From the IMG/VR virus record IMGVR_UViG_3300044941_000346: a DNA stretch of 11,485 bases; one strand, given 5' to 3'. Source of the stretch: a virus. The notes under the pieces are model-generated. The model did not search any database. It was not told where the DNA came from and saw only the letters and a program-made list of their open reading frames with translations. The stretch's first letter is position 1; every line of letters begins with the position of its first letter. Made by a program: the position numbers and the translations under genes. Positions 131-11,485 of the stretch are shown piece after piece.

Positions 131-2602
131 TCACTTCTTGCCCTTCTCCGGCGTTGGCACGAGCGCCGTCACCTTCTCCAGCGCCGAGCCTTGCAGCAGG
201 CCCGCCAGCACCTCAGAGACAGACTTGCCGCCCAGGATCGCCAGCGGAGCCATCGACTCGGCCACGCGCTCGACCAGCGCGCGGTCGCTAAACGCTTGGA
301 GCGCGGCGATAAGATCTGGGCTGATCGCCGCGGCCTTTTTGACCGTGCCGTCGACATTGGCCGCCAGCTCCTCTAAGCGCTGCGCGAGCTTCTGCGCCTC
401 AAACGCCACCTGCGCGTCCTGCGCGGCCTTCTGGCGCGCGATCTCGGCGTCGTGGATCTTGGTTAGCGCTTCTTGCTCGGCGGTCTTGCCCTCCAGCGTG
501 GCCGCCTGCGCGCTGTTGGTGGCCGCGATCTCGGCCAGCCGCACGGCGAGCCGACGCGCGACCTCTTCCTCCCGAAGCGCCAGCTCCTTCTGCGTCGTCT
601 GCGCCAGGGTTTCCATGATCTGGCGCTTCACATCTTCTTGCTGCGATACAAACGCTAAGCGGCGCTGCTCGCTTGCTAGATCCAATGTTTGCTGTACCAC
701 TGAGTGCTGTGCCTGTGTGAGCAACTCCTCAATCTTTGCATCGCCTAGCCGAACTCCTAGCACCTCCACGTCATAAATGCGCATGCCGTTCTCTTCGAAC
801 GTGCGCCCCGGACGCTTGCCACCCGCGTCAGCCTTGCCCAATACCGCGTCGCGGATCACGGCGATGGCGTCACTATAAAAGCTCTGGATACCATGTTGTT
901 TGATAGCGTTGCGCAGTAGAGAGCGCATGTGATCTGTCAAGAACTTGACAAAATTCTCGACATTAAACCACAGGTTGGGGTCGCCCTCGAAGTTGACGCG
1001 GTAGCTCAAGTGGACGTGCACCTGGCACAGATCGCGCGTCTCGGCGTCGACCAGATCGGAGATCTTGTTGTGCAGCGCGCGCAGGTAGACCGTGCGCAGC
1101 AGGTTGGTGTCGGTCTTAGGCGTGCCGGTGGACAGCTCCATCGTCTCCAACGTCTCATCATACTCCAAAAGGCAAGCGTTTGGCCCTACGATCACCTTGC
1201 GCTCGCCCGACTTGCTCACGACCTTGACCGCGTAGCCTGTCCAGACGCCGATCGTGACTGCGCCCTCGTATTTTGTATCGAGCGTGATGGTGCGCGGCGG
1301 ACTAAACTGCTGCTTCCTGTTAAAGTCGTCGCCCGCGAAACCCTCGGCGGCTTCCGAGCGGCGCTGCTGTTTGGCCGCGAGTTCCAAGATGTTTGCCTGG
1401 GCCAGATCGCCGTCCGTGATGACGGCGCCGCCGGGCGCGCCGCGCTGGCTCATCATCTGTTGCAGCCGCGCGTTGTACTCCTGCGCCTCGCGATTGCCCG
1501 GATACCACAGCGCGACCTGCTTGTCCGTCAGCACGCGGCGCACGATGACCTCGCGGCGAGGATCGGGCAGGAACATTGCGGGGCCACGCACCAGGCGGAT
1601 CTGGCCGGTCTGACGGTCCAGGCAATAGCGCCCCTCGCCCGCAGGGATCGCCACCGCGTAGTGGATCTCGCGGTTGCCATACTTGATGAGTGCGTGCTCG
1701 GGTCGAGGGAAGTAGATCATCTGCTCTTTGCCTGTGATGAAGAGCTCTTGGCCGACCTTGAACTCGGCGCCGCCCTCGGTGTAGGGCGCGATGACCTTGA
1801 CATAGATGCCCGATAGCTCGTTGAGCTCGATGGCCTTGAACTTGCGCAGCCCGTCGCGCTCCACGAACGTCTCGGTCGGCTCGGGGAACACGACAGCGGG
1901 TCCCTGAATAAAACGCTTGTTGCCGTCCTCATCCAAGAGGATACAGTACTCTAGGCGCTCAAGCGTGACAGCATCGCGGATGTAGCTGCCTGCGGCGTCG
2001 GGCACGACCTCGATGCCCGTGGGCGGGATGTAGAAGCTGACCTCGGTGCCCTTGATGATGAGCTGCTGGCCGAGCGTAAAGTCGGGGGTCTGCTGGGCTG
2101 CGGGCTGCTGTGCGCCGTCATCGGCGCTGGTCTGGAGCTTGACCACCGCCGCGCTCCAGTGCTTGCGCGCGCTCTCCTCATCGTAGACGCGCACCGTGAG
2201 GTACTGGTTGGAGCGCAGTGTGTGGCCCTTGACCACCTTGACCATCTGGCCCGGCCACAGCGCGAAGGACTGCGGGCCGGGGATGTTGACCTTGTGGCCG
2301 ACGTGGAGCTGCATCAGGTTGTTGACCGTGCCGGTCTTGGGCTGCTCGCCGTCCTTGGCCGGGTTCTTGAGCACCAGATACCAGCCCTCGGGCGCGGTGG
2401 CGAAGACCCGGATCGCTGGCTCCAACATGCAGCGCTCAAAGCGCTTGCTCTTCTCATCGAAGAACACGGGCTGATCCGTGTTGGCCAGGCTCGTCTTGTA
2501 TGGGCCGACATAGACGTTGATGTTGCCCTTGGTCTGATCCGAGATAAACGCATACTCATTGGGGGCCAGGACCAGATCGCGCTCACGGGAGTTATCCGCC
2601 AT
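131..2602 (-). CDS. mvp: Major vault protein (MVP) homologue, 823 aa; shell protein of vault ribonucleoprotein particles
   Basis: The translation aligns with eukaryotic MVP along its whole length. The N-terminus MADNSRERDLVLAPNEYAFISDQTKGNINVYVGPYKT parallels human MVP [35 protein letters not shown]. It is followed by serial ~55-aa MVP-repeat modules, a shoulder (SPFH-like) region and a long Ala/Glu/Gln-rich cap-helix coiled coil (EQRRLAFVSQQEDVKRQIMETLAQ...EAQKLAQRLEELAANV). The tail is cap-ring-like (ISPDLIAALQAFSDRALVERVAESMAPLAILGG; compare human [33 protein letters not shown]). The track start at 2611 is a GTG; the ATG at 2602..2600 gives MADNS... and is preceded by AAGGTG (2614..2609) with a 6-nt spacer. 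Confidence 0.9.
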   Translation of the reverse strand: MADNSRERDLVLAPNEYAFISDQTKGNINVYVGPYKTSLANTDQPVFFDEKSKRFERCMLEPAIRVFATAPEGWYLVLKNPAKDGEQPKTGTVNNLMQLHVGHKVNIPGPQSFALWPGQMVKVVKGHTLRSNQYLTVRVYDEESARKHWSAAVVKLQTSADDGAQQPAAQQTPDFTLGQQLIIKGTEVSFYIPPTGIEVVPDAAGSYIRDAVTLERLEYCILLDEDGNKRFIQGPAVVFPEPTETFVERDGLRKFKAIELNELSGIYVKVIAPYTEGGAEFKVGQELFITGKEQMIYFPRPEHALIKYGNREIHYAVAIPAGEGRYCLDRQTGQIRLVRGPAMFLPDPRREVIVRRVLTDKQVALWYPGNREAQEYNARLQQMMSQRGAPGGAVITDGDLAQANILELAAKQQRRSEAAEGFAGDDFNRKQQFSPPRTITLDTKYEGAVTIGVWTGYAVKVVSKSGERKVIVGPNACLLEYDETLETMELSTGTPKTDTNLLRTVYLRALHNKISDLVDAETRDLCQVHVHLSYRVNFEGDPNLWFNVENFVKFLTDHMRSLLRNAIKQHGIQSFYSDAIAVIRDAVLGKADAGGKRPGRTFEENGMRIYDVEVLGVRLGDAKIEELLTQAQHSVVQQTLDLASEQRRLAFVSQQEDVKRQIMETLAQTTQKELALREEEVARRLAVRLAEIAATNSAQAATLEGKTAEQEALTKIHDAEIARQKAAQDAQVAFEAQKLAQRLEELAANVDGTVKKAAAISPDLIAALQAFSDRALVERVAESMAPLAILGGKSVSEVLAGLLQGSALEKVTALVPTPEKGKK

Positions 2603-2608
2603 CACACA

Positions 2609-2614
2609 CACCTT
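2609..2614 (-). promoter_or_regulatory. Shine-Dalgarno (AAGGTG) for the MVP gene, 6 nt upstream of the ATG at 2602
   Basis: Minus-strand read: caAAGGTGtgtgtgATGgcggataac. A purine-rich SD at canonical spacing supports a bacterial-type initiation and the ATG 2602 start. Confidence 0.45.
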
Positions 2615-2829
2615 GCAGGGTTAGGGCCTTCTTGTGCTACACGCGCGACGCGTACAACACACTCGCTCACTCGCTGGCCGACACCCTCTCACCCAAGCGG
2701 TGGCGTTGTCAACCATCAACCTTGTGTGTTGTTGAAATGAAGGCCGCGCCGCCAACCCCATGAAAACCGATATGCAGTCGTGTTGCCGCGACGGCTGCAT
2801 CGATCGACGTCACGATTGACATCGCCGCC

Positions 2830-3705
2830 TCACCACCTGACCGGGATGCGCTCCGGCACGCCATCGCCAAACGTCTCGTAGAGGTTCAAGCGATCCATAT
2901 GCACATAACCGATGTGGCAGCCGCAGGTCTCGTTGGTGCAGGGCGAGCGCACGAGCGTTGTGTCGAAGCCCTCGTTGTAGATGTTGCCGATCGGCGTTTT
3001 GATGAAGTGACAGCGCCGCGCAGTGCCATCGCCGTCAACCGTAAAAGCGCTGTAGCCCGCGCGGCATGAGGCGCCAAGCGAGGCGTGGCGCGTGGCGTTG
3101 TAGCGAAAGAGCGGATCGATCTGCTCAAACTTTAGCAGGTCAAGCTCTTGGTAATAGCCAGGGTCGCGCTTGTAGGCGTTGATCCACATGTAGACGCTTG
3201 GATCCAGCTCGGCGCGCAGCGCATTTAGCTCGTCGAGCGCGTCCTTGAACCCCACAGCGCCCACCGAGTAGCGCACGCCGCGCGTGTCCAGCTCGCGGCA
3301 CTTGGCCACAAACCCCGCGCGCGTGATCTGGGTCGGGTGGTACGTTGTCCACAGCGCCAGCACGTTGCGGTTGGCGCGCTCGGTCCAGCCAAGCTTGCAT
3401 GTCAGGTTGGTTTGGATTGCCGCACGCCACACATGGGGCATGTGGCTTAACTCAATCAGGGCCTCCTGATAATGTCGCCTTATCAATCCCTCGCCCCAGG
3501 GCGTAAACAATAATCCGATCTGCTTATCTGTGCGGAGGCGTATCCACTCGACAAAGCGCTCTAGCTTTAGTCGATCATCCTCTAGCTCCGCGCGTGTATT
3601 GCGGGTCTTGGCAAATGGGCAGTAGTCGCAAGCATAGTTGCAGCTCGACAGCGGACCGCGATACAAGATCACCCATCTGTCTGCAGCCTCGTGTGGCGTC
3701 TTCAT
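2830..3705 (-). CDS. Radical SAM enzyme (Cx3Cx2C = CNYACDYC) with a C-terminal Cys cluster; resembles, from memory, the STM4011-type rSAM family
   Basis: The ORF has the canonical rSAM motif ...WVILYRGPLSSCNYACDYCPFAK near the N-terminus and a C-terminal cysteine cluster (CRAGY...RRCHF...SPCTNETCGCHIGYVH). The start is placed at ATG 3705..3703 (MKTPHEAADRW...), which forms an ATGA 4-bp overlap with the upstream gene stop (3704..3702). The track's longer ORF from 3756 would overlap the upstream gene by 55 bp. Confidence 0.8.
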   Translation of the reverse strand: MKTPHEAADRWVILYRGPLSSCNYACDYCPFAKTRNTRAELEDDRLKLERFVEWIRLRTDKQIGLLFTPWGEGLIRRHYQEALIELSHMPHVWRAAIQTNLTCKLGWTERANRNVLALWTTYHPTQITRAGFVAKCRELDTRGVRYSVGAVGFKDALDELNALRAELDPSVYMWINAYKRDPGYYQELDLLKFEQIDPLFRYNATRHASLGASCRAGYSAFTVDGDGTARRCHFIKTPIGNIYNEGFDTTLVRSPCTNETCGCHIGYVHMDRLNLYETFGDGVPERIPVRW

Positions 3706-5099
3706 GTGATCGCAAAGCCCCGCATCATTGCCTCCACCTTGGGCGAGTTCATCCACGGGCCGATCACGTCCGAGGCGTCGATCCCACGCTGCGTCAGCGC
3801 GAGCGTCCCGGCCTCACGGCGCACCAGCCCCAGTGCCTCCAGCTCCGCCACCTGTGGCAGCGCCTCGTCGAGCGACACCCCGAACCTGCGCGCAAACAGG
3901 GCGAGGTCGAGCGCGTGTGCGCCGCCATCGGCCAAGAGCGACACCACCACGAAGCGGCGCTGCTGCTCGGCCTCGTCCAGTAGAAAGCCGTAGTGGACCG
4001 CACCAAAGAACTCAGCGGGGCGCTGCACCCAGTCCTCGATGATGTGTACCACGCTGCGTCGTCCCACCGCCCACTCCGTCGAGTAGTGCAGCCCGCGCGT
4101 GTAGGATCGCGCGCCTACGCCCAGGCCCACCATCCCATCCGTCGCTGGGTGGTACGCCGGCCCGCGCGTGCGCGGTGTATGATCGGCACGCACGAACATC
4201 CGCATCGATCGCTGATTGTAGCCATGGGATAGAAGATAATCGCGGCCCTGTTGATACAGATCATAGCGCCAGTCATCCCACGCCTTGTCCGAGTTTCCTA
4301 GTCCCGTCAGCGGCCTCACATACAGAGGATACAAGAAGATCTCCTCGGAGCCATACGCCACCGCCGCTTCAAGCGAGCGCTCCCAGCTCTGTGCTGTCTG
4401 GCCCTCGATCCCGTAGATGAGGTCGATGTTGCGCTCCTCAAAGCTGCCGCTCGCCAAGAGTTCAAGCGCGCGCTCCAGCACCTTGTGCCGCTGCGGCCTG
4501 CGCACCGCCTTGGTCTCCGACTCCAAGAAGCTTTGCACCCCCATCGACACCCGCGTCACGTTAAATCTCTTTAATATGTCGATCTTCGATGGTGTCAGCG
4601 TCTCCGGGCTGACCTCACACGAGAGCGGGATCTGCGGCGCGCTGCCGCCCAGCGGCGCCCCCATGATCCCGGCCGCGACCCGCTCAAACAGCGCCTCAAG
4701 CGACGCGTCATCCAGCTGCGTCGGCGTCCCGCCCCCCACCGCCATCCGCGCAAACCCCACCTCGCGCTCGCCCAGCGCGCGCCGCGTCTGCTCGGCCTGC
4801 CGCGTCAGCGCCCCCAAGAAACCCCTGTGCAGCGCATCGCCTGGCTTGGCCATCGCGAACAGGTTACAGAACCCGCAGCGCATCTCGCAGAACGGCACAT
4901 GAATATACAGGTAGAGCGCGCGCGTGTCCTCCTCGCGCCAGACCTCCTCCAGCTGCAGTGCTGGCTCGATCGGGCGATAGGCCGTCTTATGCGGATAAGC
5001 GTAGGCATAAGATTGAAACGGTGAACCGGTCAGCCGCATGGCGAGCGTCCCGGTCGGCATCGCCGTGTGCGGTGTCGTCGTGATCTGTGTCGTCGTCAT
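3702..5099 (-). CDS. HemN/HemW-like radical SAM enzyme (oxygen-independent coproporphyrinogen-oxidase family fold); STM4012-like by recollection
   Basis: YLYIHVPFCEMRCGFCNLF is the HemN-family signature (YxHxPFC + Cx3Cx2C). The length (~465 aa) and the C-terminal winged-helix-like tail are typical of HemN-like proteins. The start is placed at ATG 5099..5097 (MTTTQITTTPH...), giving an ATGA overlap with the upstream hydrolase stop (5098..5096). The 43-codon N-terminal extension in the track (to 5228) overlaps the hydrolase gene and is rejected. Confidence 0.8.
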   Translation of the reverse strand: MTTTQITTTPHTAMPTGTLAMRLTGSPFQSYAYAYPHKTAYRPIEPALQLEEVWREEDTRALYLYIHVPFCEMRCGFCNLFAMAKPGDALHRGFLGALTRQAEQTRRALGEREVGFARMAVGGGTPTQLDDASLEALFERVAAGIMGAPLGGSAPQIPLSCEVSPETLTPSKIDILKRFNVTRVSMGVQSFLESETKAVRRPQRHKVLERALELLASGSFEERNIDLIYGIEGQTAQSWERSLEAAVAYGSEEIFLYPLYVRPLTGLGNSDKAWDDWRYDLYQQGRDYLLSHGYNQRSMRMFVRADHTPRTRGPAYHPATDGMVGLGVGARSYTRGLHYSTEWAVGRRSVVHIIEDWVQRPAEFFGAVHYGFLLDEAEQQRRFVVVSLLADGGAHALDLALFARRFGVSLDEALPQVAELEALGLVRREAGTLALTQRGIDASDVIGPWMNSPKVEAMMRGFAIT

Positions 5100-5923
5100 C
5101 TCTGCTCCATGCTGGTCTTCGCAGCTGAATAGAAGGCGTGCGCGTAGGGCACGTCCCACACCGCTTGATGCGCCAGCCGATGCCCGTAGAACCCATCCTC
5201 CCCATACGCTGTCCCGTGGTCCCCACATACGATACAGAACGTCTCATCCCGCAGCGATTCTAGTAGTAATGGCAGCTGGCTGTCTACATAGCGCAGCGCC
5301 GCTGCGTGCGTCTCGATCGTGTCCTCCGCCGCCCCATCTATATAAAAGCGATTCGGCTGGTGCAGCGCTGAGACATTGATAAACAGGAACGTGCGCTGCT
5401 CAGGTGCAAGCGCTCGTAGCCGCTCACCAGCTAGCTCAAACTGGTTTTTTGTAGAGTCTCGATCCGTCACGCCGAGCTTGGGCGCCCAGTGGCTCTCGTG
5501 AAATAAATTTGGTAGGACAGACCCCAGCGCCGTCTGCTTATTAAAGAAGCCCACGCCGCCGATGCAGATCGTGTGGTAGCCGCGCGCCGCCAGCCCCGTC
5601 ACAATGTCCGCCTCCTGCATCACACACGTCGTCTGTCCAGTCGTCTCCGATCCGCCAAAACTCGCCGCGAACAGCCTCACATGCCGCCCCGGTCTCGCCG
5701 GCGTCGGCAGAAACCCCGCGAAGAACGCTTGGTGTGCCGCATACGTAAAGCTCCCCGGCGTGTGCCGCCGCTCCCAGCCTCCCGGCCCGATCAGCCGCGC
5801 CAAGTGCGGCGTCTCGCCCGACCGCATCAGCCTGTCCGCCACATCAAAGCGCAGCGTATCCAGCGTCATAAACAGGATGTCGTGCGCCCCCACCACCGCG
5901 TTCATGTCCACATCATCGCTCAT
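5096..5923 (-). CDS. Alkaline-phosphatase-superfamily metallohydrolase (sulfatase/NPP/phosphonoacetate-hydrolase-like); STM4013/SEN3800-like by recollection
   Basis: The N-terminal metal-ligand block ILFMTLDTLRFD and the C-terminal block CIVCGDHGTAYGEDGFYGH (DHG...GxH) are hallmarks of the alkaline phosphatase / type I phosphodiesterase fold. The start is ambiguous. Candidates are GTG 5929 (17-bp overlap), ATG 5923 (11-bp overlap) and ATG 5905 (7-nt gap after the upstream TGA). None has a clean SD. Confidence 0.75.
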   Translation of the reverse strand: MSDDVDMNAVVGAHDILFMTLDTLRFDVADRLMRSGETPHLARLIGPGGWERRHTPGSFTYAAHQAFFAGFLPTPARPGRHVRLFAASFGGSETTGQTTCVMQEADIVTGLAARGYHTICIGGVGFFNKQTALGSVLPNLFHESHWAPKLGVTDRDSTKNQFELAGERLRALAPEQRTFLFINVSALHQPNRFYIDGAAEDTIETHAAALRYVDSQLPLLLESLRDETFCIVCGDHGTAYGEDGFYGHRLAHQAVWDVPYAHAFYSAAKTSMEQR

Positions 5924-7736
5924 CTTCACGCATCAACCACGCCTCAAGCTCTGTCACCTCGCCAAGCTCCACCTCGGGCGCTGGCTGCGCCACATGCCAC
6001 GTCCTGCCGCGCACTACCCACGCCGTCCTCAGCCCCACACACCGCGCCCCCAGCAGATCGTGCACCGGCGTATCACCGACCATCACCGCCGCGCGCGGAT
6101 CTTCCGCGCAGCCCGTCGCCGACAGCGCGGCCTCGAAGATCGCCGCGTCTGGTTTTGTAGCGCCGATCTCGTCTGAGATAAAGATCGCATCAGGATCAAA
6201 ATGTCGCAGGAGGTCAGCCCGCGCCAGCTTGTCGCGCTGGCTCGCGCTGCCACCGTTGCTCAACAGCGCCAACTTGTAACGTTTGCTCAATCGCTCAAGC
6301 ATCGCTTGAATCGCAGGCTCTGGCACAAGCTCCGCCGCGATGCGGCGCGGTAGCTCGGCCCACACGGCCCGCCACTCGCCCGCCTCCCTGCCGAGCAGCC
6401 CACACAGCGCCTCACACAACACTCGCCGATCCCCATGCCCATGCGCGTCCAGCGCAAACACCCGCGCCAGCGCCTCGTCATCACAGCCCGTCCAGCGCCG
6501 CACCGCCGCGCAGAACGCCGCGTCGCGGTCGATCAACGTGTTGTCGAGATCAAACAGCACCGCCCGTATCTTTGGCCACGCCTCCAGCCTGCCCCAGCCC
6601 GCAAAGCCCCGCACCTCCGCCGTATAGCTGTCCTCCCCACGATCATACACATTGGGCAGCAGATCCCCAAACGCATTGACCTCGATGATACGCGGCGCAT
6701 CCAGCGCATCCGCCGGGAACAACACGTCCGCCCCCAGATAATACGCGCCCGGAAACGCCTGCGCTGCCTGCCTACACAATACCTCAAGCGCGCTCCACCC
6801 CACATCTCCCACCAGCGCCCGCACCTGATCCAGCTCCCCCCGCGCGTTCCCCAGATGAAGGTTTGTCATGGGATGCTCTGAGGCCCGCACCACCACCTGA
6901 CGCGCCTCACCGCCGATCACCACCACCCGCAGATCAAAGTTTTTGTCCTGACCATCATGTCGGATCATCGCCTTTGATGACCACTTCTCCACCACCGCAC
7001 CCTCCGCCAATAAATAATTTAGCAGTAGCGCGATCTGTCGAATGTCGTGATAACGTCGCGGTCGAAGTGAATTGTAAATGGAGAACCTGCCGTCGCTGTC
7101 CTCCACCAGATGGGCCGTGGTGGTCAACATCGCGCGCGGGCCGCTGACGCGCAGAGCCGCAACGCCCGACGCAGACGAGCTGCCGCGCAGCTTCACAAAC
7201 ACCCGATCCCAGCCCGCCTCGTCCATCCGCGCCCGCAGCGCCTCCCACGATCCCACGCCCTCCAGCGATGGCATCCTCGGCACACCATGCGCGTCCAATC
7301 TGCGGTGCGTCGCCAGCTTGTCAAACATCACCGCGATCTCGTCCGGGCGGCTCATGATGCGCCCCGGCGCACCTTCAAGTATCACTTGAAGGTCGCGCAA
7401 GACCGCCTGCCAGCCCGCGCGCAGCTGCCCCGGCGCCAAAAGCCTGCCGTGCTCAAGCGGCGCACAGAGCGCCTCCTGCGCGGTAAGCGTCGGCTCGTCC
7501 AGCTCCTCCGCACCGCGCGCCAGCAGCCTGCGCGTCACGCGCGCATCCTCGCCCGGCGACTCCAGCCGCAGGATCGTGTCGTCGTCCAGCAGATCTGGCA
7601 GCACCACGCGCCCCTCCAACACGTCGAGCCACGCCACAAAGCGCGCCGCGCTGTGGCCGCTGCGCATCAGCGCGTCCTGCACGTACGCTGTGCGGCGATG
7701 CCCCGCGTTGCCCACCACCACCCACCGCCTCGTCAT
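5913..7736 (-). CDS. Two-domain fusion: N-terminal ATP-grasp ligase (RimK/glutathione-synthetase-like) + C-terminal HAD-superfamily phosphatase
   Basis: ATP-grasp: DLRVVVIGGEARQVVVRASEHPMTNLHLGNARGE matches the RimK core ([32 protein letters not shown]). The motif ...RIIEVNAFGD is also present. HAD: motif I FDLDNTL (aa ~398), S/T motif LLSNGG, Lys in GATKPD, and the motif IV block MVGDTPVHDL. The start is placed at ATG 7736..7734 (MTRRWVVVGN...), giving an ATGA overlap with the upstream LRR gene stop (7735..7733). Confidence 0.8.
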   Translation of the reverse strand: MTRRWVVVGNAGHRRTAYVQDALMRSGHSAARFVAWLDVLEGRVVLPDLLDDDTILRLESPGEDARVTRRLLARGAEELDEPTLTAQEALCAPLEHGRLLAPGQLRAGWQAVLRDLQVILEGAPGRIMSRPDEIAVMFDKLATHRRLDAHGVPRMPSLEGVGSWEALRARMDEAGWDRVFVKLRGSSSASGVAALRVSGPRAMLTTTAHLVEDSDGRFSIYNSLRPRRYHDIRQIALLLNYLLAEGAVVEKWSSKAMIRHDGQDKNFDLRVVVIGGEARQVVVRASEHPMTNLHLGNARGELDQVRALVGDVGWSALEVLCRQAAQAFPGAYYLGADVLFPADALDAPRIIEVNAFGDLLPNVYDRGEDSYTAEVRGFAGWGRLEAWPKIRAVLFDLDNTLIDRDAAFCAAVRRWTGCDDEALARVFALDAHGHGDRRVLCEALCGLLGREAGEWRAVWAELPRRIAAELVPEPAIQAMLERLSKRYKLALLSNGGSASQRDKLARADLLRHFDPDAIFISDEIGATKPDAAIFEAALSATGCAEDPRAAVMVGDTPVHDLLGARCVGLRTAWVVRGRTWHVAQPAPEVELGEVTELEAWLMREDER

Positions 7737-8992
7737 GCCATCCACCAGGGGTCATCCGGGTCGAGCGCCGCTGCGCACCAGCGCGCCCCCACCTCATCAA
7801 GCTCCGCGCGCACCGCCGCGCTGGCCGCAATCGCAGCCAGCGTCACCTCATTAAAGCCGTTCCCATTTAACACCACCCGCGCGCTCGGATGCAGCCGCGG
7901 CGACGTGATCAGCGCCAGCGCCCCCGCGTCCGTGAGCTGCGTCGCCGACAGATTTAGTAGGCGCAACTGCCCCACCCACGGCAGCGCCAGCAGCCGCTCT
8001 ACGGCTTGATCCGTCAACGGGTTGTCGCTCAGATCCAGCGCGGTCAGCCCCCAGCTGTGCCCTTCTGTGAGTGGCTCGAACAGCGTGTCCAGCGTCGCAT
8101 CGTCGATCCTGCACTCGCCCAGCTCCAGCGTCTTCAAGCGACCCAGCACCGCAGGCGCCTCGCGCAGCACATGCGCCCCTCCGTGCAAGAATAGATTGCC
8201 GCGCAGCGACAGGTGCCGCAGCGCCTCCCAGCCCGACAACGCGAAGATGTGCATACACGGCAGCCCGTGGTGCCCCTCACAGTGCTCCAGCCAGAGCGAC
8301 TCCAGCACGGGCGCCGCGTCCGCAACCTCGACCAGCGCGTCCAACCCCGCGCTGCCGCCCACGCCGAGCGGGTTGCGCGACAGATCCAGGTGCCGCAGCC
8401 CCCGCACCAGCGGTGCACGCGCCAGCCGCACCAGCGGCAGCGCCATCGGCTGCGCGTTATTGCTCGTTGCACGTGTCACGTTCGCCAGGCTCAACCGCTC
8501 AAGCGGCGGCTTATCTGGCTCATCTTGCAGCCAGGCGTCCAGCGCGCCCAACACATCATTGTCCGACAGGTCAAGCGCGCGGAGCCGGTTGTGCTCGGCC
8601 AGCCGCTCCATCAGCGGCCCCACCATATGCTCGTGCAGGCTCGTCCCAGCCAGATCGAGCTGCGTGATGTGCCCCAGCGCCGGATGCTCGATCAGGCGCT
8701 GCATCTTGTCCCGATCCGTCAGCTGCACATGCACTCGCAGCCGCCTGGCGAGCGCCAGCGCGGGCAGCTTGTCGCCCGATAGCACCCGCGCAATCCAGCG
8801 CCGAGGCGCCACCCGCCAGCTATCCTCCCAGCCGCGCAGCTGCGCCTCACAATACGGCAGCGCCTGCTCGGCCAACGATCCATCGTCTGGCCACCGCTCC
8901 AGGAGCGCGCACAGCGCCCCCCACGTCTGCGGCTCAGGCGCGCGCTGCAGTAGGCTGCGCAGCTCCCCGAACAACACCTCGCGCTCGCTCAA
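7733..8992 (-). CDS. RNI-type leucine-rich-repeat protein, paralogue A (~419 aa), with a ~75-aa Trp-rich N-terminal domain shared by the downstream paralogues
   Basis: There are multiple 25-29-aa repeats of the form LxxLxLSxNxLxDxgaxxL (LDLSDNDVLGALDAWL, LDLSRNPLGVGGSAGLDAL, LDLSDNPLTDQAVERLLAL, LNLSATQLTDAGALAL). The N-terminal domain is LFGELRSLLQRAPEPQTWGALCALLERW...ALPYCEAQLRGWEDSWRVAPRRWIARVLSG. The likely start is TTG 8992..8990, preceded by AGGTGG (9003..8998) with a 5-nt spacer, giving a TTGA 4-bp overlap with the upstream stop. The alternative is GTG 9001 (the track start). Confidence 0.75.
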   Translation of the reverse strand: MSEREVLFGELRSLLQRAPEPQTWGALCALLERWPDDGSLAEQALPYCEAQLRGWEDSWRVAPRRWIARVLSGDKLPALALARRLRVHVQLTDRDKMQRLIEHPALGHITQLDLAGTSLHEHMVGPLMERLAEHNRLRALDLSDNDVLGALDAWLQDEPDKPPLERLSLANVTRATSNNAQPMALPLVRLARAPLVRGLRHLDLSRNPLGVGGSAGLDALVEVADAAPVLESLWLEHCEGHHGLPCMHIFALSGWEALRHLSLRGNLFLHGGAHVLREAPAVLGRLKTLELGECRIDDATLDTLFEPLTEGHSWGLTALDLSDNPLTDQAVERLLALPWVGQLRLLNLSATQLTDAGALALITSPRLHPSARVVLNGNGFNEVTLAAIAASAAVRAELDEVGARWCAAALDPDDPWWMA

Positions 8993-9855
8993 GGCTCCCA
9001 CCTCTCGTCATCCACCCACACCGCAAGCTCTGGTCGCTGCGCATACAGATGCTCAAGCGCCGCGCGCACGGAGCGCTCACGCACCTCCAGCCCCGTCAGC
9101 CTGACCTCGCGCAGCGTCGGCAGCTGCTTGGGCGCCGCGCTCAACCACTCCAGGCGCACCCGGTTCCCACTTATATTTAAAGTCTCAATGCTCTCCATGC
9201 GATCCGTGAGCATCGCGTGAATCGATAGATCATTGTCGCTGATGTTAAGGTGTTTGATATGACTCATTGCGCCAGCTTTATTTATATGGACAGCATAGAC
9301 TGTGCTCAGCCCACAGCGTCGCAGGCTTATCCGAGCCAGCTTTGTCGCATCTGCGGGGAGCATCGCCCAGACACCTCGACCACCAAGTGGATTGTGATCA
9401 AGTGTCAAGGATTCGAGAACAGACCAGCTCAGATGACGCCCCAAGATCGCTCCTGCTTCCTCGCCTAAATCACACTCCGACAACATCACATGTGTGAGCG
9501 GCCCCATATCGGGGTTGCTTAATACTACCAAGAGTCCGTGATCGCCGAGCGGGCCGCGGTGGTGGAGGTGGCGGGCTAGCCGCCACAGCCTGCACCGCTC
9601 GCCGCGCAGCGTGGCCCGCATCCAAGCCGCCGGGTTGACGCGCATGGCGTCAGGCCAGGCTTTGAGGTGCTCCTCGGCGTAGGGGATGAGCATCTCCCAC
9701 AGGTAGTCATCATGCGCTGCGGGTGCCAGCACCGCGCAGATCTCGGCCCAGACAAGCGGGCAGGGCGGGCGGTGCAGCAGGCTGCGCAGCTCGGAGAGGC
9801 GCCACTCGGGCGAATCACGATGGGTTTTGGGTGAGGGAGACGGCATCAAGCTCAC
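8989..9855 (-). CDS. RNI-type leucine-rich-repeat protein, paralogue B (288 aa), same N-terminal domain family
   Basis: N-terminal domain: WRLSELRSLLHRPPCPLVWAEICAVL...LIPYAEEHLKAWPDAMRVNPAAWMRATLRGE. It aligns with paralogue A through the conserved ELRSLL, ALPY/LIPY, W(P/E)D..RV.P and W(I/M) positions. LRRs: LTLDHNPLGGRGVWAML, LNISDNDLSIHAML, LNISGNRVRLEWL. The GTG start at 9855..9853 forms a GTGA overlap with the upstream stop. ATG 9846 is the alternative. Confidence 0.75.
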   Translation of the reverse strand: MSLMPSPSPKTHRDSPEWRLSELRSLLHRPPCPLVWAEICAVLAPAAHDDYLWEMLIPYAEEHLKAWPDAMRVNPAAWMRATLRGERCRLWRLARHLHHRGPLGDHGLLVVLSNPDMGPLTHVMLSECDLGEEAGAILGRHLSWSVLESLTLDHNPLGGRGVWAMLPADATKLARISLRRCGLSTVYAVHINKAGAMSHIKHLNISDNDLSIHAMLTDRMESIETLNISGNRVRLEWLSAAPKQLPTLREVRLTGLEVRERSVRAALEHLYAQRPELAVWVDDERWEP

Positions 9856-10573
9856 AGGTCGTCGTCGTAGGGCTCCTCAAGCTCGATCATAGCCTCGTTG
9901 GCGCTGCTCAACAACTCCAGCCGCGCGTTGCAGCCGACGGGGTTGGGCGACAGGCTCAACTGCTCCATCCGTTTGAGCCACACGCACGCCGCGAGCGCAT
10001 AGGCGCCGCGCGAGTTTATGGGGTTGCGCTCAAGCTCGATCGCGGTCTGCGCCGCAAGCCGTAGGCCCGTCACCAGCAGCTCCAGCCCCTCGTCATAGAG
10101 CGCGCAGCTGTGGAGCGACAGGTTGGTCAAGGCGCGCTCGACGCCGCGCGGCGCCTATGCGGTTGTGGCTCAGGTTGGGCGAGACAAGCCGCGTCAGGTG
10201 CGGGCACTGGACGCTGGCGTGCGGATGCCCTTGTCGCTGACCGAGGACCTGTAGCGCATGACGCGCACCAGCACAAGGGACGCCCCCGGATGGCGTGCTT
10301 GATCCAATCCGGGGGCGCGACGCGCAGCGCGTCAGGCCATGTGTCCAGCGCACGCTTGAGGTAGGGCAGGGCCCTCTCGGTGAACAGATCTGGTCGCTCT
10401 GGTTGCGCCTGGTAGGCGTCGATCGCGCGTCCCAGCGCATTCCAGCGCGCCGCGTCGGGCTGGCCGTGCGCAACGCCGCAGAATTCCCCATACCAAGTTG
10501 TCTTGATTGACCTTCTTTTTGCGCTACAAAATGCGTGTTCGGTGTGGTCGGTAAAAGGCTGAGCCAAAGGCAA
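9852..10573 (-). pseudogene. Third LRR paralogue, apparently disrupted by two frameshifts (N-domain in one frame, first LRRs in a second, C-terminal LRRs + acidic tail in a third)
   Basis: Frame 1 (10127..10573) encodes the N-domain homologue WYGEFCGVAHGQPDAARWNALGRAIDAY...ALPYLKRALDTWPDALRVAPPDWIKHAIRGRPLCW. Frame 2 (within 10093..10491) continues with ARHALQVLG...CPHLTRLVSPNLSHNRIGAA, which matches paralogue B LARHLHHRGPLG...GPLTHVMLSECDLGEEAGA. Frame 3 (9852..10130) encodes LRRs and ends EEPYDDDL. This implies single-nt indels near ~10300 and ~10130. Confidence 0.5.
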
Positions 10574-10639
10574 TGAGGCAGAATGAAGGAAGCTTGGTAT
10601 TATTTGTTATCTTATCTCCTCGTTTTATCGTGGTCTTTG

Positions 10640-10825
10640 TTATGTGTTAAAGTGACGGTTTAAGCGTGGCCGCTCACTCCACCAAGTCGTAGAACGTGCC
10701 AAACTCGATCTCCAGAGCGCCTTCCACGCCTCGGCGCTGGACGGCTGCTCCAGCGCGCTGCGCAGCTCACCGAACCGCGCGCTGTGATCACTCACCGACT
10801 TCGACATACCAGTAGTCATCGTCAT
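10640..10825 (-). pseudogene. Orphan fragment of the LRR-paralogue N-terminal domain (first ~25 aa conserved, then degenerates and stops)
   Basis: The 61-aa ORF contains ARFGELRSALEQPSSAEAWKALW, closely matching LFGELRSLLQRAPEPQTWGALCALLERW of paralogue A. The remainder has no similarity and runs into the AT-rich spacer. It overlaps the 3' end of the upstream LRR gene in another frame. Confidence 0.3.
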
Positions 10826-11485
10826 CGTCGGCGCGGCGCTGCCCGCCGTTACGCACCGTCACGCCCGTCGCGCGGAGCTGGTCGATCAGCTCCTCATCGC
10901 CGATGAAGTTATTGGTGATATCAATCGACTTGAGCTTGCCGATCTTTGGATTCCTCGCTAGCGCACCGGCTCCTGTATTCGACATGATCCCCTTCGACAG
11001 ATCCAGCTCCTCCAGGAAGTCCAGCACAGGCGCATCAAACAGCGCCTCCGCCAGCTCGTCCGCCAGCTCGCTGTTCACCAGCCCCAGCCGCTTGAGCTTG
11101 GGGAACGGATACCGCATCTCCGGATACGCTGTCCCCACCAGCAGCGGCTTCACATCCTCCACCGTCACGTCCGCCCCGTACTCGCTGCTCCCCGTCCAGA
11201 TCTCCAGATGCTGCAGGTTCGGCAGCTTCGCGCTCACGATCTGGCGCACCGTGTGGCCGCTCACGCCGCCTGTCTCCACGATCAGCGTCTCCAGCGTCGG
11301 GTGGCTCAGGCCCGTGAACCCCAGCCCGTTGCCGCCGCGCGCCTTGAAGTGCTTGAGCTTGGGGAAGGCGTTGATCACCGCGCCCAGATCAAACTGCTCG
11401 ATCCACGACACCTCGCTCTCCTCATAGGAGATGTCGCCCACAAACAGCGCCTCCAAGGAGGTGAGCTTGGGCGCCGCCGCCCGCA
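10788..11485 (-). CDS. RNI-type LRR protein, 5'-partial (start lies beyond the window end), with acidic/aromatic C-terminal tail DDDDDYWYVEVGE
   Basis: The open frame runs off the window at 11485; M at 11456 is only the first in-window Met. Repeats LETLIVETGGVSGHTVRQI, LQHLEIW, LKRLGLVNSELADELAEAL, LEELDLSKGIMSNTGAGALA, LKSIDITNNFIGDEELIDQL are RNI-like LRRs. The composition (more K/I/F) differs from paralogues A/B, so it may be a distinct LRR subtype. Confidence 0.75.
   Translation of the reverse strand, partial: RAAAPKLTSLEALFVGDISYEESEVSWIEQFDLGAVINAFPKLKHFKARGGNGLGFTGLSHPTLETLIVETGGVSGHTVRQIVSAKLPNLQHLEIWTGSSEYGADVTVEDVKPLLVGTAYPEMRYPFPKLKRLGLVNSELADELAEALFDAPVLDFLEELDLSKGIMSNTGAGALARNPKIGKLKSIDITNNFIGDEELIDQLRATGVTVRNGGQRRADDDDDYWYVEVGE

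Follow-up and report, generated by a model that had tools for sequence, protein, structure and literature searches.

What do the enzymes encoded between positions 2830 and 7736 of the DNA stretch IMGVR_UViG_3300044941_000346 do, and do they make up the whole of the system to which they belong? An earlier note on this IMG/VR virus record (11,485 nucleotides (nt), here called the window), written by a model that saw only the sequence, had described the interval as a four-enzyme cassette of two radical S-adenosylmethionine (SAM) enzymes, an alkaline-phosphatase-fold (AP-fold) hydrolase, and an ATP-grasp-HAD protein. We find that the window carries one instance of a conserved STM4015-STM4014-(HAD)-STM4013-STM4012-STM4011 system. 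The copy is genuine, and it belongs to an operon of unassigned function that is widespread in bacteria and present also in Salmonella and some Escherichia coli. The unit is larger than four enzymes: The system has six parts, adding the leucine-rich repeat (LRR) protein STM4015 and the HAD phosphatase. The reading that we favor, to which we give about an even chance, is that the ligase STM4014 joins an amine to the tail of STM4015 and that the radical SAM pair, the AP-fold enzyme, and the HAD phosphatase make or tailor the attached group from a phosphorylated precursor.

All long genes of the window are on the minus strand, and the four genes of the interval 2830-7736 lie on that strand at the coordinates that the earlier note had given. 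The features on which the argument depends are as follows:

2830-3705, minus strand: STM4011, radical SAM enzyme whose C-terminal cysteine motif is SPASM/twitch-like (NF038073)
3702-5099, minus strand: STM4012, HemN-like (class C type) radical SAM enzyme (NF006067; Pfam Radical_SAM and HemN_C)
5096-5929, minus strand: STM4013/SEN3800, alkaline-phosphatase-superfamily enzyme (NF038075)
5913-6569, minus strand: HAD-IA phosphatase domain fused to STM4014, residues 390-607 (Pfam HAD_2, TIGR02253)
6609-7736, minus strand: STM4014 ATP-grasp ligase domain, residues 1-376 (NF038074)
10788-11485, minus strand: STM4015-family LRR protein, 309 amino acids (aa) at full length, with its N-terminal 78 residues beyond the window end (NF038076)
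10791-10829, minus strand: acidic C-terminal tail of STM4015, DDDDDYWYVEVGE, read from the sequence; final Glu is GAG at 10791-10793 and the stop is at 10788-10790; candidate substrate site of the ATP-grasp ligase

The families STM4011, STM4012, STM4013/SEN3800, and STM4014, which the earlier note had named, are the right ones. In a profile search, the four enzyme genes match their NCBIfam models above the curated cut-offs, with E-values from 1e-99 to 1e-158: STM4011 with 386 bits (cut-off 200; profile positions 2-278 of 278), STM4012 with 526 bits (cut-off 380; positions 1-425 of 427), STM4013 with 406 bits (cut-off 250), and STM4014 with 333 bits (cut-off 175; residues 5-376 of the product of gene 5913-7736, which continues into the C-terminal HAD-IA domain, matched over residues 390-600). 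The Pfam assignments (Radical_SAM, HemN_C, Sulfatase, and HAD_2) are in accord. The fragment of STM4015 inside the window scores 228 bits against NF038076, and an identical protein of full length (P0241) scores 260 bits (E = 1.6e-77; positions 6-290 of 290) against a cut-off of 275; synteny and the C-terminal motif agree with membership in the STM4015 family. On a JGI contig of identical sequence the gene starts 232 nt beyond the window end and is the first of the operon, behind a SUI1 gene.

Three exact ATGA overlaps (3705-3702, 5099-5096, and 7736-7733) are confirmed from the sequence. The last of these links the ATP-grasp gene with an upstream LRR gene (7733-9001), and the operon therefore extends upstream of the reported block. 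The junction between STM4014-HAD and STM4013 has no ATGA. The two genes overlap by 11 nt if STM4013 starts at ATG 5923 (the JGI call) or by 17 nt if it starts at GTG 5929, and they are separated by a 7-nt gap if it starts at ATG 5905, where the homologues and the NCBIfam profile begin; the true start is probably ATG 5923 or ATG 5905. From the overlaps it had been concluded that co-translation is obligate and that the products probably form a stoichiometric complex. The overlaps do show that the genes of an operon are translationally coupled, but neither conclusion follows, since such overlaps are common in operons.

A search with STM4011 returned about 4,700 proteins at E ≤ 1e-5, which may include more distant radical SAM relatives, and at least 501 species genomes were matched in the scan. 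Around STM4011 homologues we collected 80 loci from species genomes of more than ten phyla, many of them on short contigs. STM4012 is present in 72 of these loci, STM4013 in 60, STM4014 in 45, STM4015 in 42, and a HAD gene in 18. The order 4015-4014-(HAD)-4013-4012-4011 holds for most of the 80 loci and, LRR insertions apart, for the window; it spans Myxococcota, Planctomycetota, Verrucomicrobiota, Bacteroidota, Chloroflexota, Acidobacteriota, Armatimonadota, and others, and it is found also in Deinococcota, Bacillota, and Enterobacteria. There are two variants: In Verrucomicrobia the 4015-4014 pair is divergent from HAD-4013-4012-4011, and in some Planctomycetota the two halves of the cassette lie apart. 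The 4-nt overlap recurs at 55 of 71 STM4012/STM4011 junctions and at 35 of 53 STM4013/STM4012 junctions. The earlier note had named two outcomes that would count against it, scores below the trusted cut-offs and genes scattered individually. Since the scores exceed the cut-offs and the genes are co-conserved in fixed order across many phyla, neither was observed.

The C-terminus of STM4015 is the feature that most directly suggests a function. Among 150 STM4015 representatives (clustered at 50% identity, from a library-wide search), 148 end in Glu. Every STM4015 homologue in the collected loci has Glu as its last residue, the proteins of Salmonella, E. coli, Paenibacillus, Bacteroides, and Deinococcus (in both of its copies) have it too, and the open reading frame (ORF) directly upstream of STM4014 ends in Glu in 41 out of 44 loci; the background in the same loci is at most 9% of long ORFs. 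The common tail has an acidic linker followed by [YW]-R-Y-[VI]-A-V-[SG]-E. The tail is ...Y-L-F-x-G-D-[YI]-E in planctomycete split systems and ...Y-M-N-[AP]-M-[YF]-T-E in enterobacteria, and the only residue common to the three motifs (RYVAVSE, YLFxGDYE, and YMNAMYTE) is the last Glu. Between the two main tail classes, identity drops from 40.5% to 31.0% for STM4014 and from 49.5% to 31.3% for STM4015. There is no such drop for STM4013 (58.5% vs. 60.6%), STM4012 (52.6% vs. 51.5%), or STM4011 (57.3% vs. 58.4%). Since STM4014 and STM4015 both fall to ∼31% while the others stay at 51%-61%, the ligase and the tailed LRR protein appear to evolve as a pair.

Many longer STM4015 homologues (P0253, P0281, P0288, P0291, and P0294) carry one or two N-terminal WGR domains and keep the LRR region. 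The WGR domain occurs in PARP and is thought to bind nucleic acid. In a WGR-bearing Bacteroides copy whose tail was read (locus L083, 6513-7586), the last residue is Glu.

STM4014 has the full set of ATP-grasp motifs. In a fold comparison of its model, the best structural matches are of the ArgX, LysX, and RimK type, ligases whose target is the C-terminal Glu of a protein; DcsG, GshB, and Ddl are also close, and the list includes the graspetide ligases PsnB, CdnC, and MdnC. The HAD domain fused to it (64 bits to Pfam HAD_2, 98 bits to TIGR02253) has all four catalytic motifs, DLDNT, SNGG, KPD, and GDT. The same STM4014-HAD fusion occurs in three close homologues (P0122, P0123, and P0135). In Bacteroides finegoldii it is instead STM4011 that is fused to a HAD domain, one of the Cof-type HAD-IIB subfamily; elsewhere the HAD has a gene of its own, and in Salmonella and E. 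coli it is the last gene of the operon, its start overlapping the STM4011 stop. The HAD phosphatase is thus a recurrent sixth part of the system, tied to both halves of the cassette by independent fusions. The position can be taken by either of two HAD subfamilies, which suggests that the pathway includes a dephosphorylation step of a generic kind. The B. finegoldii fusion is a protein of 521 aa, and the cassette around it (8590-10530 of L083) is decayed, with a short fragment of STM4013 only and STM4012 missing.

STM4013 is a minimal alkaline-phosphatase-superfamily core. The metal Asp, the nucleophile position, and the DHG...H site of the NPP/sulfatase-like core are all found (31.8 bits to Pfam Sulfatase, cut-off 25). 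Residues T62, H66, D237, H238, and H250 are invariant and D24, the first-strand Asp, is nearly so (≥90%). T62, in the site Thr62-x-x-x-His66, is aligned with the formylglycine nucleophile position of sulfatases, and the metal site DHG...GHR is invariant. A sequence search of the PDB gave only weak sulfatase/NPP matches, and the candidate activities are phosphodiesterase, pyrophosphatase, mutase, and phosphotransferase.

Neither radical SAM enzyme of the cassette has a solved or characterized close relative. In STM4011 the motif CNYACDYC is at residues 22-29 (nt 3619-3642), and the C-terminal cysteines CX12GX4C...CX4CXC are invariant; the Pfam SPASM model (PF13186) reaches 17.8 bits against a threshold of 21.5. 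Among its fold matches the best is BlsE (a nucleoside-sugar decarboxylase), and the list also has MoaA, AbmM, viperin, and DesII, together with SkfB, SuiB, PqqE, and anSME, all at an identity of only 9%-13%. A sequence search of the PDB with STM4011 gave no match, and the window protein is only ∼31% identical to Salmonella STM4011.

The SPASM/twitch-like cysteines and the matches to SkfB, SuiB, PqqE, and anSME raise the possibility that the system makes a peptide synthesized on the ribosome and modified after translation (RiPP) or a protein-derived cofactor. The tail of STM4015 would be the core peptide and the LRR domain the leader, and the product would be cleaved off as in PQQ or mycofactocin. 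The graspetide ligases among the STM4014 matches and the conserved Tyr/Phe and Val in the tail motif fit such a scheme, and HemN-like methyltransferases such as NocN work on RiPPs. We nevertheless consider it unlikely, and equally doubtful are its proposed steps, in which STM4011 would cross-link or decarboxylate tail residues, STM4012 would methylate them, and the ATP-grasp enzyme would cyclize. No residue of the tail but the terminal Glu is invariant across clades (compare Salmonella ...AMYTE with planctomycete ...GDYE), and the SPASM score is below threshold. Family scans detected no RiPP recognition element (RRE) or PqqD-like domain of STM4011, whose radical SAM motif begins at residue 22. 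There is no recurrent protease or exporter among the conserved neighbor genes, and RiPP maturation does not ordinarily involve an AP-fold enzyme or a HAD phosphatase. The earlier note had itself argued against a classical RiPP from the lack of a precursor ORF. It was right in so far as no small precursor ORF is conserved on either flank (downstream of STM4011, upstream of STM4015) among the loci examined. The strongest clue to peptide- or protein-directed chemistry, the C-terminal Glu of STM4015, lies outside the coordinates that it considered.

STM4012 has the motifs CEMRCGFC at residue 71 and GGGTP at residue 122, and its nearest solved relatives by sequence, NocN and HemN, are equally distant (E about 1e-17). 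Older annotations would place this protein in heme or porphyrin metabolism, as a coproporphyrinogen oxidase, a heme chaperone, or a heme-degrading enzyme, and there are a HemN_C domain and partial matches to HemW (122 bits), HutW (109 bits), and HemN (TIGR00538, 108 bits). These scores are far below the respective cut-offs of 205, 400, and 325, whereas the specific STM4012 model gives the 526 bits noted above. The second residue after the CxxxCxxC motif is Leu, a position that we take to be the fourth cysteine in HemN. A separate hemN is retained nearby in Salmonella, and no heme genes are co-conserved with the cassette. The heme reading is thus largely refuted by the curated cut-offs and is, in our estimate, hardly credible; on the TIGR00538 score, a HemN function of STM4012 was rejected.

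How might these parts act together? We envisage STM4015 as an LRR-fold carrier or acceptor that would present the invariant final Glu on a flexible acidic tail. STM4014, as a putative carboxylate-amine ligase of the LysX/ArgX/RimK structural type, would activate a carboxylate of that residue and join it to an amine, which may be an amino acid or a phosphorylated amino compound. STM4011 (SPASM/twitch), STM4012 (probably with chemistry of the class C methyltransferase type), and STM4013 (with its predicted threonine nucleophile) would take a phosphorylated precursor and from it make or tailor the group that is appended, with the HAD phosphatase removing a phosphate. The pathway might end in an LRR protein with a modified C-terminus or in a small molecule that is put together on the tail and then set free. 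In its broader form, that the LRR protein is a new kind of carrier or acceptor, whose Glu is loaded by a LysX/RimK-like ligase and on or for which the radical SAM pair, the AP-fold enzyme, and the HAD phosphatase build a group, we hold the proposal with somewhat less than even confidence. A phosphorylated small-molecule or nucleotide intermediate is plausible, given the capped HADs, the NPP-like STM4013, and the mixture of nucleoside/sugar and peptide enzymes among the fold matches of STM4011.

Several points weigh against this proposal. We infer the tail as ligase substrate from adjacency, fold similarity, and conservation, and we likewise infer the order of steps and every chemical identity. 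STM4014 scores far below the sequence models of its nearest structural types (LysX TIGR02144, 19 bits against a cut-off of 275.6; RimK TIGR00768, 21 bits against 143), and a sequence search of the PDB with it gave no match. The co-divergence of STM4014 and STM4015 could be mere joint inheritance of a two-gene module. There is no amidase or peptidase in the cassette to release a tethered product, and an AP-fold enzyme has no evident role in a protein-tail pathway. Capped HAD types usually act on small-molecule substrates, and since both HAD types are capped, the pathway probably has at least one free phosphorylated metabolite. The STM4013-4012-4011 trio occurs without STM4015 and STM4014 within 10 kb in several loci, planctomycete ones among them, and one locus (L069) is without STM4014; the trio may therefore work independently.

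Some of these observations would fit a free small-molecule pathway, in line with the earlier note, in which the radical SAM pair, STM4013, STM4014, and the HAD would turn a nucleotide or sugar phosphate into a modified and in the end dephosphorylated metabolite. STM4014 would join two small molecules, and STM4015 would be only a scaffold or regulator whose terminal Glu is kept for another reason. BlsE as the best fold match of STM4011, with MoaA, AbmM, viperin, and DesII behind it, fits such a pathway, as do the lack of a RiPP recognition domain in that enzyme, the NPP/sulfatase-type Thr-x-x-x-His site of STM4013, the trio found alone, the closeness of DcsG, GshB, and Ddl to STM4014, and the resemblance of the HAD domains to small-molecule phosphatases (YjjG-type nucleotidases and Cof-type sugar phosphatases). 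It gives no account, however, of why the last residue of STM4015 is the only one invariant across three tail motifs, of why STM4015 always ends directly before STM4014, or of why these two proteins diverge together and apart from the trio. We therefore rate a pathway of free metabolites as possible but rather improbable, and retain ligation to the STM4015 tail as the preferred reading.

Tail ligation has precedents in logic, but by membership tests the cassette belongs to none of the LysW carrier, RimK/tubulin ligase, or EF-P lysylation families. One likeness is to the LysW/LysX-ArgX system of lysine and arginine biosynthesis (Thermus and archaea), where an ArgX/LysX-fold ligase is encoded beside an acidic-tailed protein that ends in a small residue and Glu; the LysW C-terminus is EDWGE. 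The LysW carrier is a 54-aa zinc-ribbon protein, whereas the cassette candidate is a 309-aa LRR protein, and only the acidic tail and the terminal Glu are common to the two. The likeness of the ligases is at the level of the fold only, as the TIGR02144 score indicates. The partners also differ: radical SAM, AP-fold, and HAD enzymes here, and LysZ, LysY, LysJ, and LysK there; unlike the LysW system, the cassette has no release amidase. RimK, which polyglutamylates the C-terminus of ribosomal protein S6, and the tubulin tyrosine ligase/TTLL enzymes have no radical SAM counterparts, and the candidate substrate in the cassette is a dedicated, co-encoded LRR protein; STM4014 is also well short of the RimK model (TIGR00768, above). 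In EF-P beta-lysylation, the radical SAM aminomutase EpmB makes an unusual amine and the ligase EpmA attaches it to one specific protein. This is an analogue in logic only: Its enzymes come from unrelated families, and the amine is accepted by a lysine of EF-P, not by a C-terminal Glu. For the radical SAM enzymes themselves, the named relatives of STM4012 are the class C HemN-like methyltransferases NocN and NosN, and STM4011 differs from the SPASM/twitch enzymes BlsE, MoaA, SkfB, PqqE, and anSME in its low identity (9%-13%) and in the lack of an RRE detectable by family scans.

The direct counterpart of the window is the STM4011-STM4015 cassette of Salmonella and E. coli (NF038073, NF006067, NF038075, NF038074, and NF038076), which has the same five families in the same order and with the same 4-nt overlaps. 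A HAD phosphatase is associated with it, and its LRR protein likewise has a terminal Glu. It differs in that its HAD is a separate Cof-type IIB gene after STM4011 and not a type IA domain fused to STM4014. The window also has two intact and one decayed extra LRR genes between STM4015 and STM4014, which the Salmonella cassette does not. The STM4014-HAD fusion and the inserted LRR paralogues are lineage-specific features of the window copy.

The five families are already NCBI-named and annotated in RefSeq. The earlier note held that the cassette has no assigned function, and this agrees with the literature searched (STM4011-4015, SEN3800, and DUF6745), where we found incidental mentions only (a differential-expression table, a sigma-54 chromatin immunoprecipitation site, and a selection scan) and no functional publication. 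The system is thus catalogued but uncharacterized; what is new is a testable hypothesis about the terminal Glu, together with the lineage-specific features of the window. The invariant Glu and the LysX/RimK-like ligase turn a conserved hypothetical operon into a simple test, the mass of the tryptic C-terminal peptide of STM4015. If true, the proposal would bring LRR proteins and radical SAM tailoring into the range of carrier-protein-templated chemistry (LysW, pearlins) or of C-terminal protein modification (RimK, tubulin ligases), and would amount to a previously undescribed protein-templated biosynthesis or C-terminal protein modification found from soil predators to Salmonella and adherent-invasive E. 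coli.

The cassette sits in well-studied pathogens, and its distribution there bears on a further explanation. In RefSeq Salmonella the operon is next to typA and ends in the Cof-type HAD-IIB gene; it is present in all Salmonella records seen. In E. coli the six-gene operon is found in 158 of 5426 complete genomes (about 3%), always as a single chromosomal copy, with about 70% DNA identity to that of Salmonella. Carriers include the adherent-invasive strains LF82 and NRG857c, and in LF82 (L085), the only E. coli locus examined, it again lies beside typA. It is also found on a Deinococcus megaplasmid and a Paenibacillus plasmid. Plasmid records with the cassette number only 13, mostly large and non-mobilizable. 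There is no genuine phage with the cassette, both "phage" matches being Salmonella chromosomal sequence (one is AFYI01000005.1, a 156-kb Salmonella Infantis record). A Salmonella "plasmid 3" record (L081, NZ_LN868945.1) looks chromosomal, since it carries glnA, typA, and hemN with the cassette. Riboswitches were sought with Rfam in the window and in six loci; none was found, only an unrelated small RNA near typA.

Patchy occurrence of this kind, the duplicated, inserted, and decayed LRR genes of the window, the extra LRR-DUF6745 genes beside the cassette in 16 of the 80 loci, and the WGR fusions of many STM4015 homologues would suit a conflict or anti-phage system, in which an invader would be sensed by the LRR and WGR-LRR proteins and a modified nucleotide would be produced by the radical SAM enzymes in the way of viperin, itself among the fold matches of STM4011. 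We regard this as very unlikely. A PADLOC scan of all nine window proteins found no defense-system match; the best score was 15 bits to pVip (E = 0.003), and there was none for STM4013, STM4014, or the LRR proteins. The rarity of plasmid records, the absence of a genuine phage carrier, and the fixed chromosomal site beside typA and glnA in Salmonella and E. coli also argue against it, and STM4015 is too conserved (∼50% identity within a tail class, with an invariant tail) for a fast-evolving sensor.

The remaining features of the window are the inserted LRR genes and the genes on the downstream side:

9852-10787, minus strand: decayed, frameshifted copy or copies of a lineage-specific LRR paralogue (three-frame translation: N-terminal motif, LRR units, and C-terminus in three frames)
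8989-9855, minus strand: LRR paralogue 2, 288 aa, between STM4015 and STM4014, without the acidic Glu tail (Pfam LRR; JGI call; C-terminus ...DDERWEP)
7733-9001, minus strand: LRR paralogue 1, 419-422 aa, stop overlapping the ATP-grasp start (ATGA 7733-7736) (Pfam LRR_1, LRR_6, and LRR_4; weak NF038076 match)
2709-2822, minus strand: 37-aa ORF (MSIVTSIDAAVAATRLHIGFHGVGGAAFISTTHKVDG), 7 nt after the STM4011 stop (JGI call)
131-2611, minus strand: bacterial homologue of the major vault protein of eukaryotes, 823-826 aa, likely start ATG 2602, directly downstream of the cassette (Pfam MVP_shoulder, 96.6 bits; Vault_3, 33.5 bits)

The interval 7733-10787 holds a tandem family of RNI-type LRR genes with a common N-terminal motif and two intact copies, none with the acidic Glu tail. 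One copy is split across three frames (9852-10573), and a short N-terminal remnant directly follows the STM4015 stop. A Bradymonadales locus (L030) and a Myxococcales locus (L075) have similar LRR genes within the cassette or close to it.

The major vault protein homologue, for which a PDB sequence search gave no match, was considered as a part of the system and rejected: It is near the cassette in none of the 80 other loci and is therefore probably unrelated to it. The 37-aa ORF is probably not a precursor peptide, since no similar ORF lies behind STM4011 in other loci.

The LRR-DUF6745 genes of the 16 loci belong to a recurrent gene pair beside the cassette (for example, L005 12356-13707 and L082 9878-11175) that is absent from the window. 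One member is an LRR protein in which a DUF6745 domain forms the C-terminal part. The second has ∼100 aa and the motifs G-E-V-T-G-H-S-H and H-E-E-H, without a family match. The pair is found in Chloroflexota, Planctomycetota, Verrucomicrobiota, Myxococcota, Armatimonadota, and Deinococcota.

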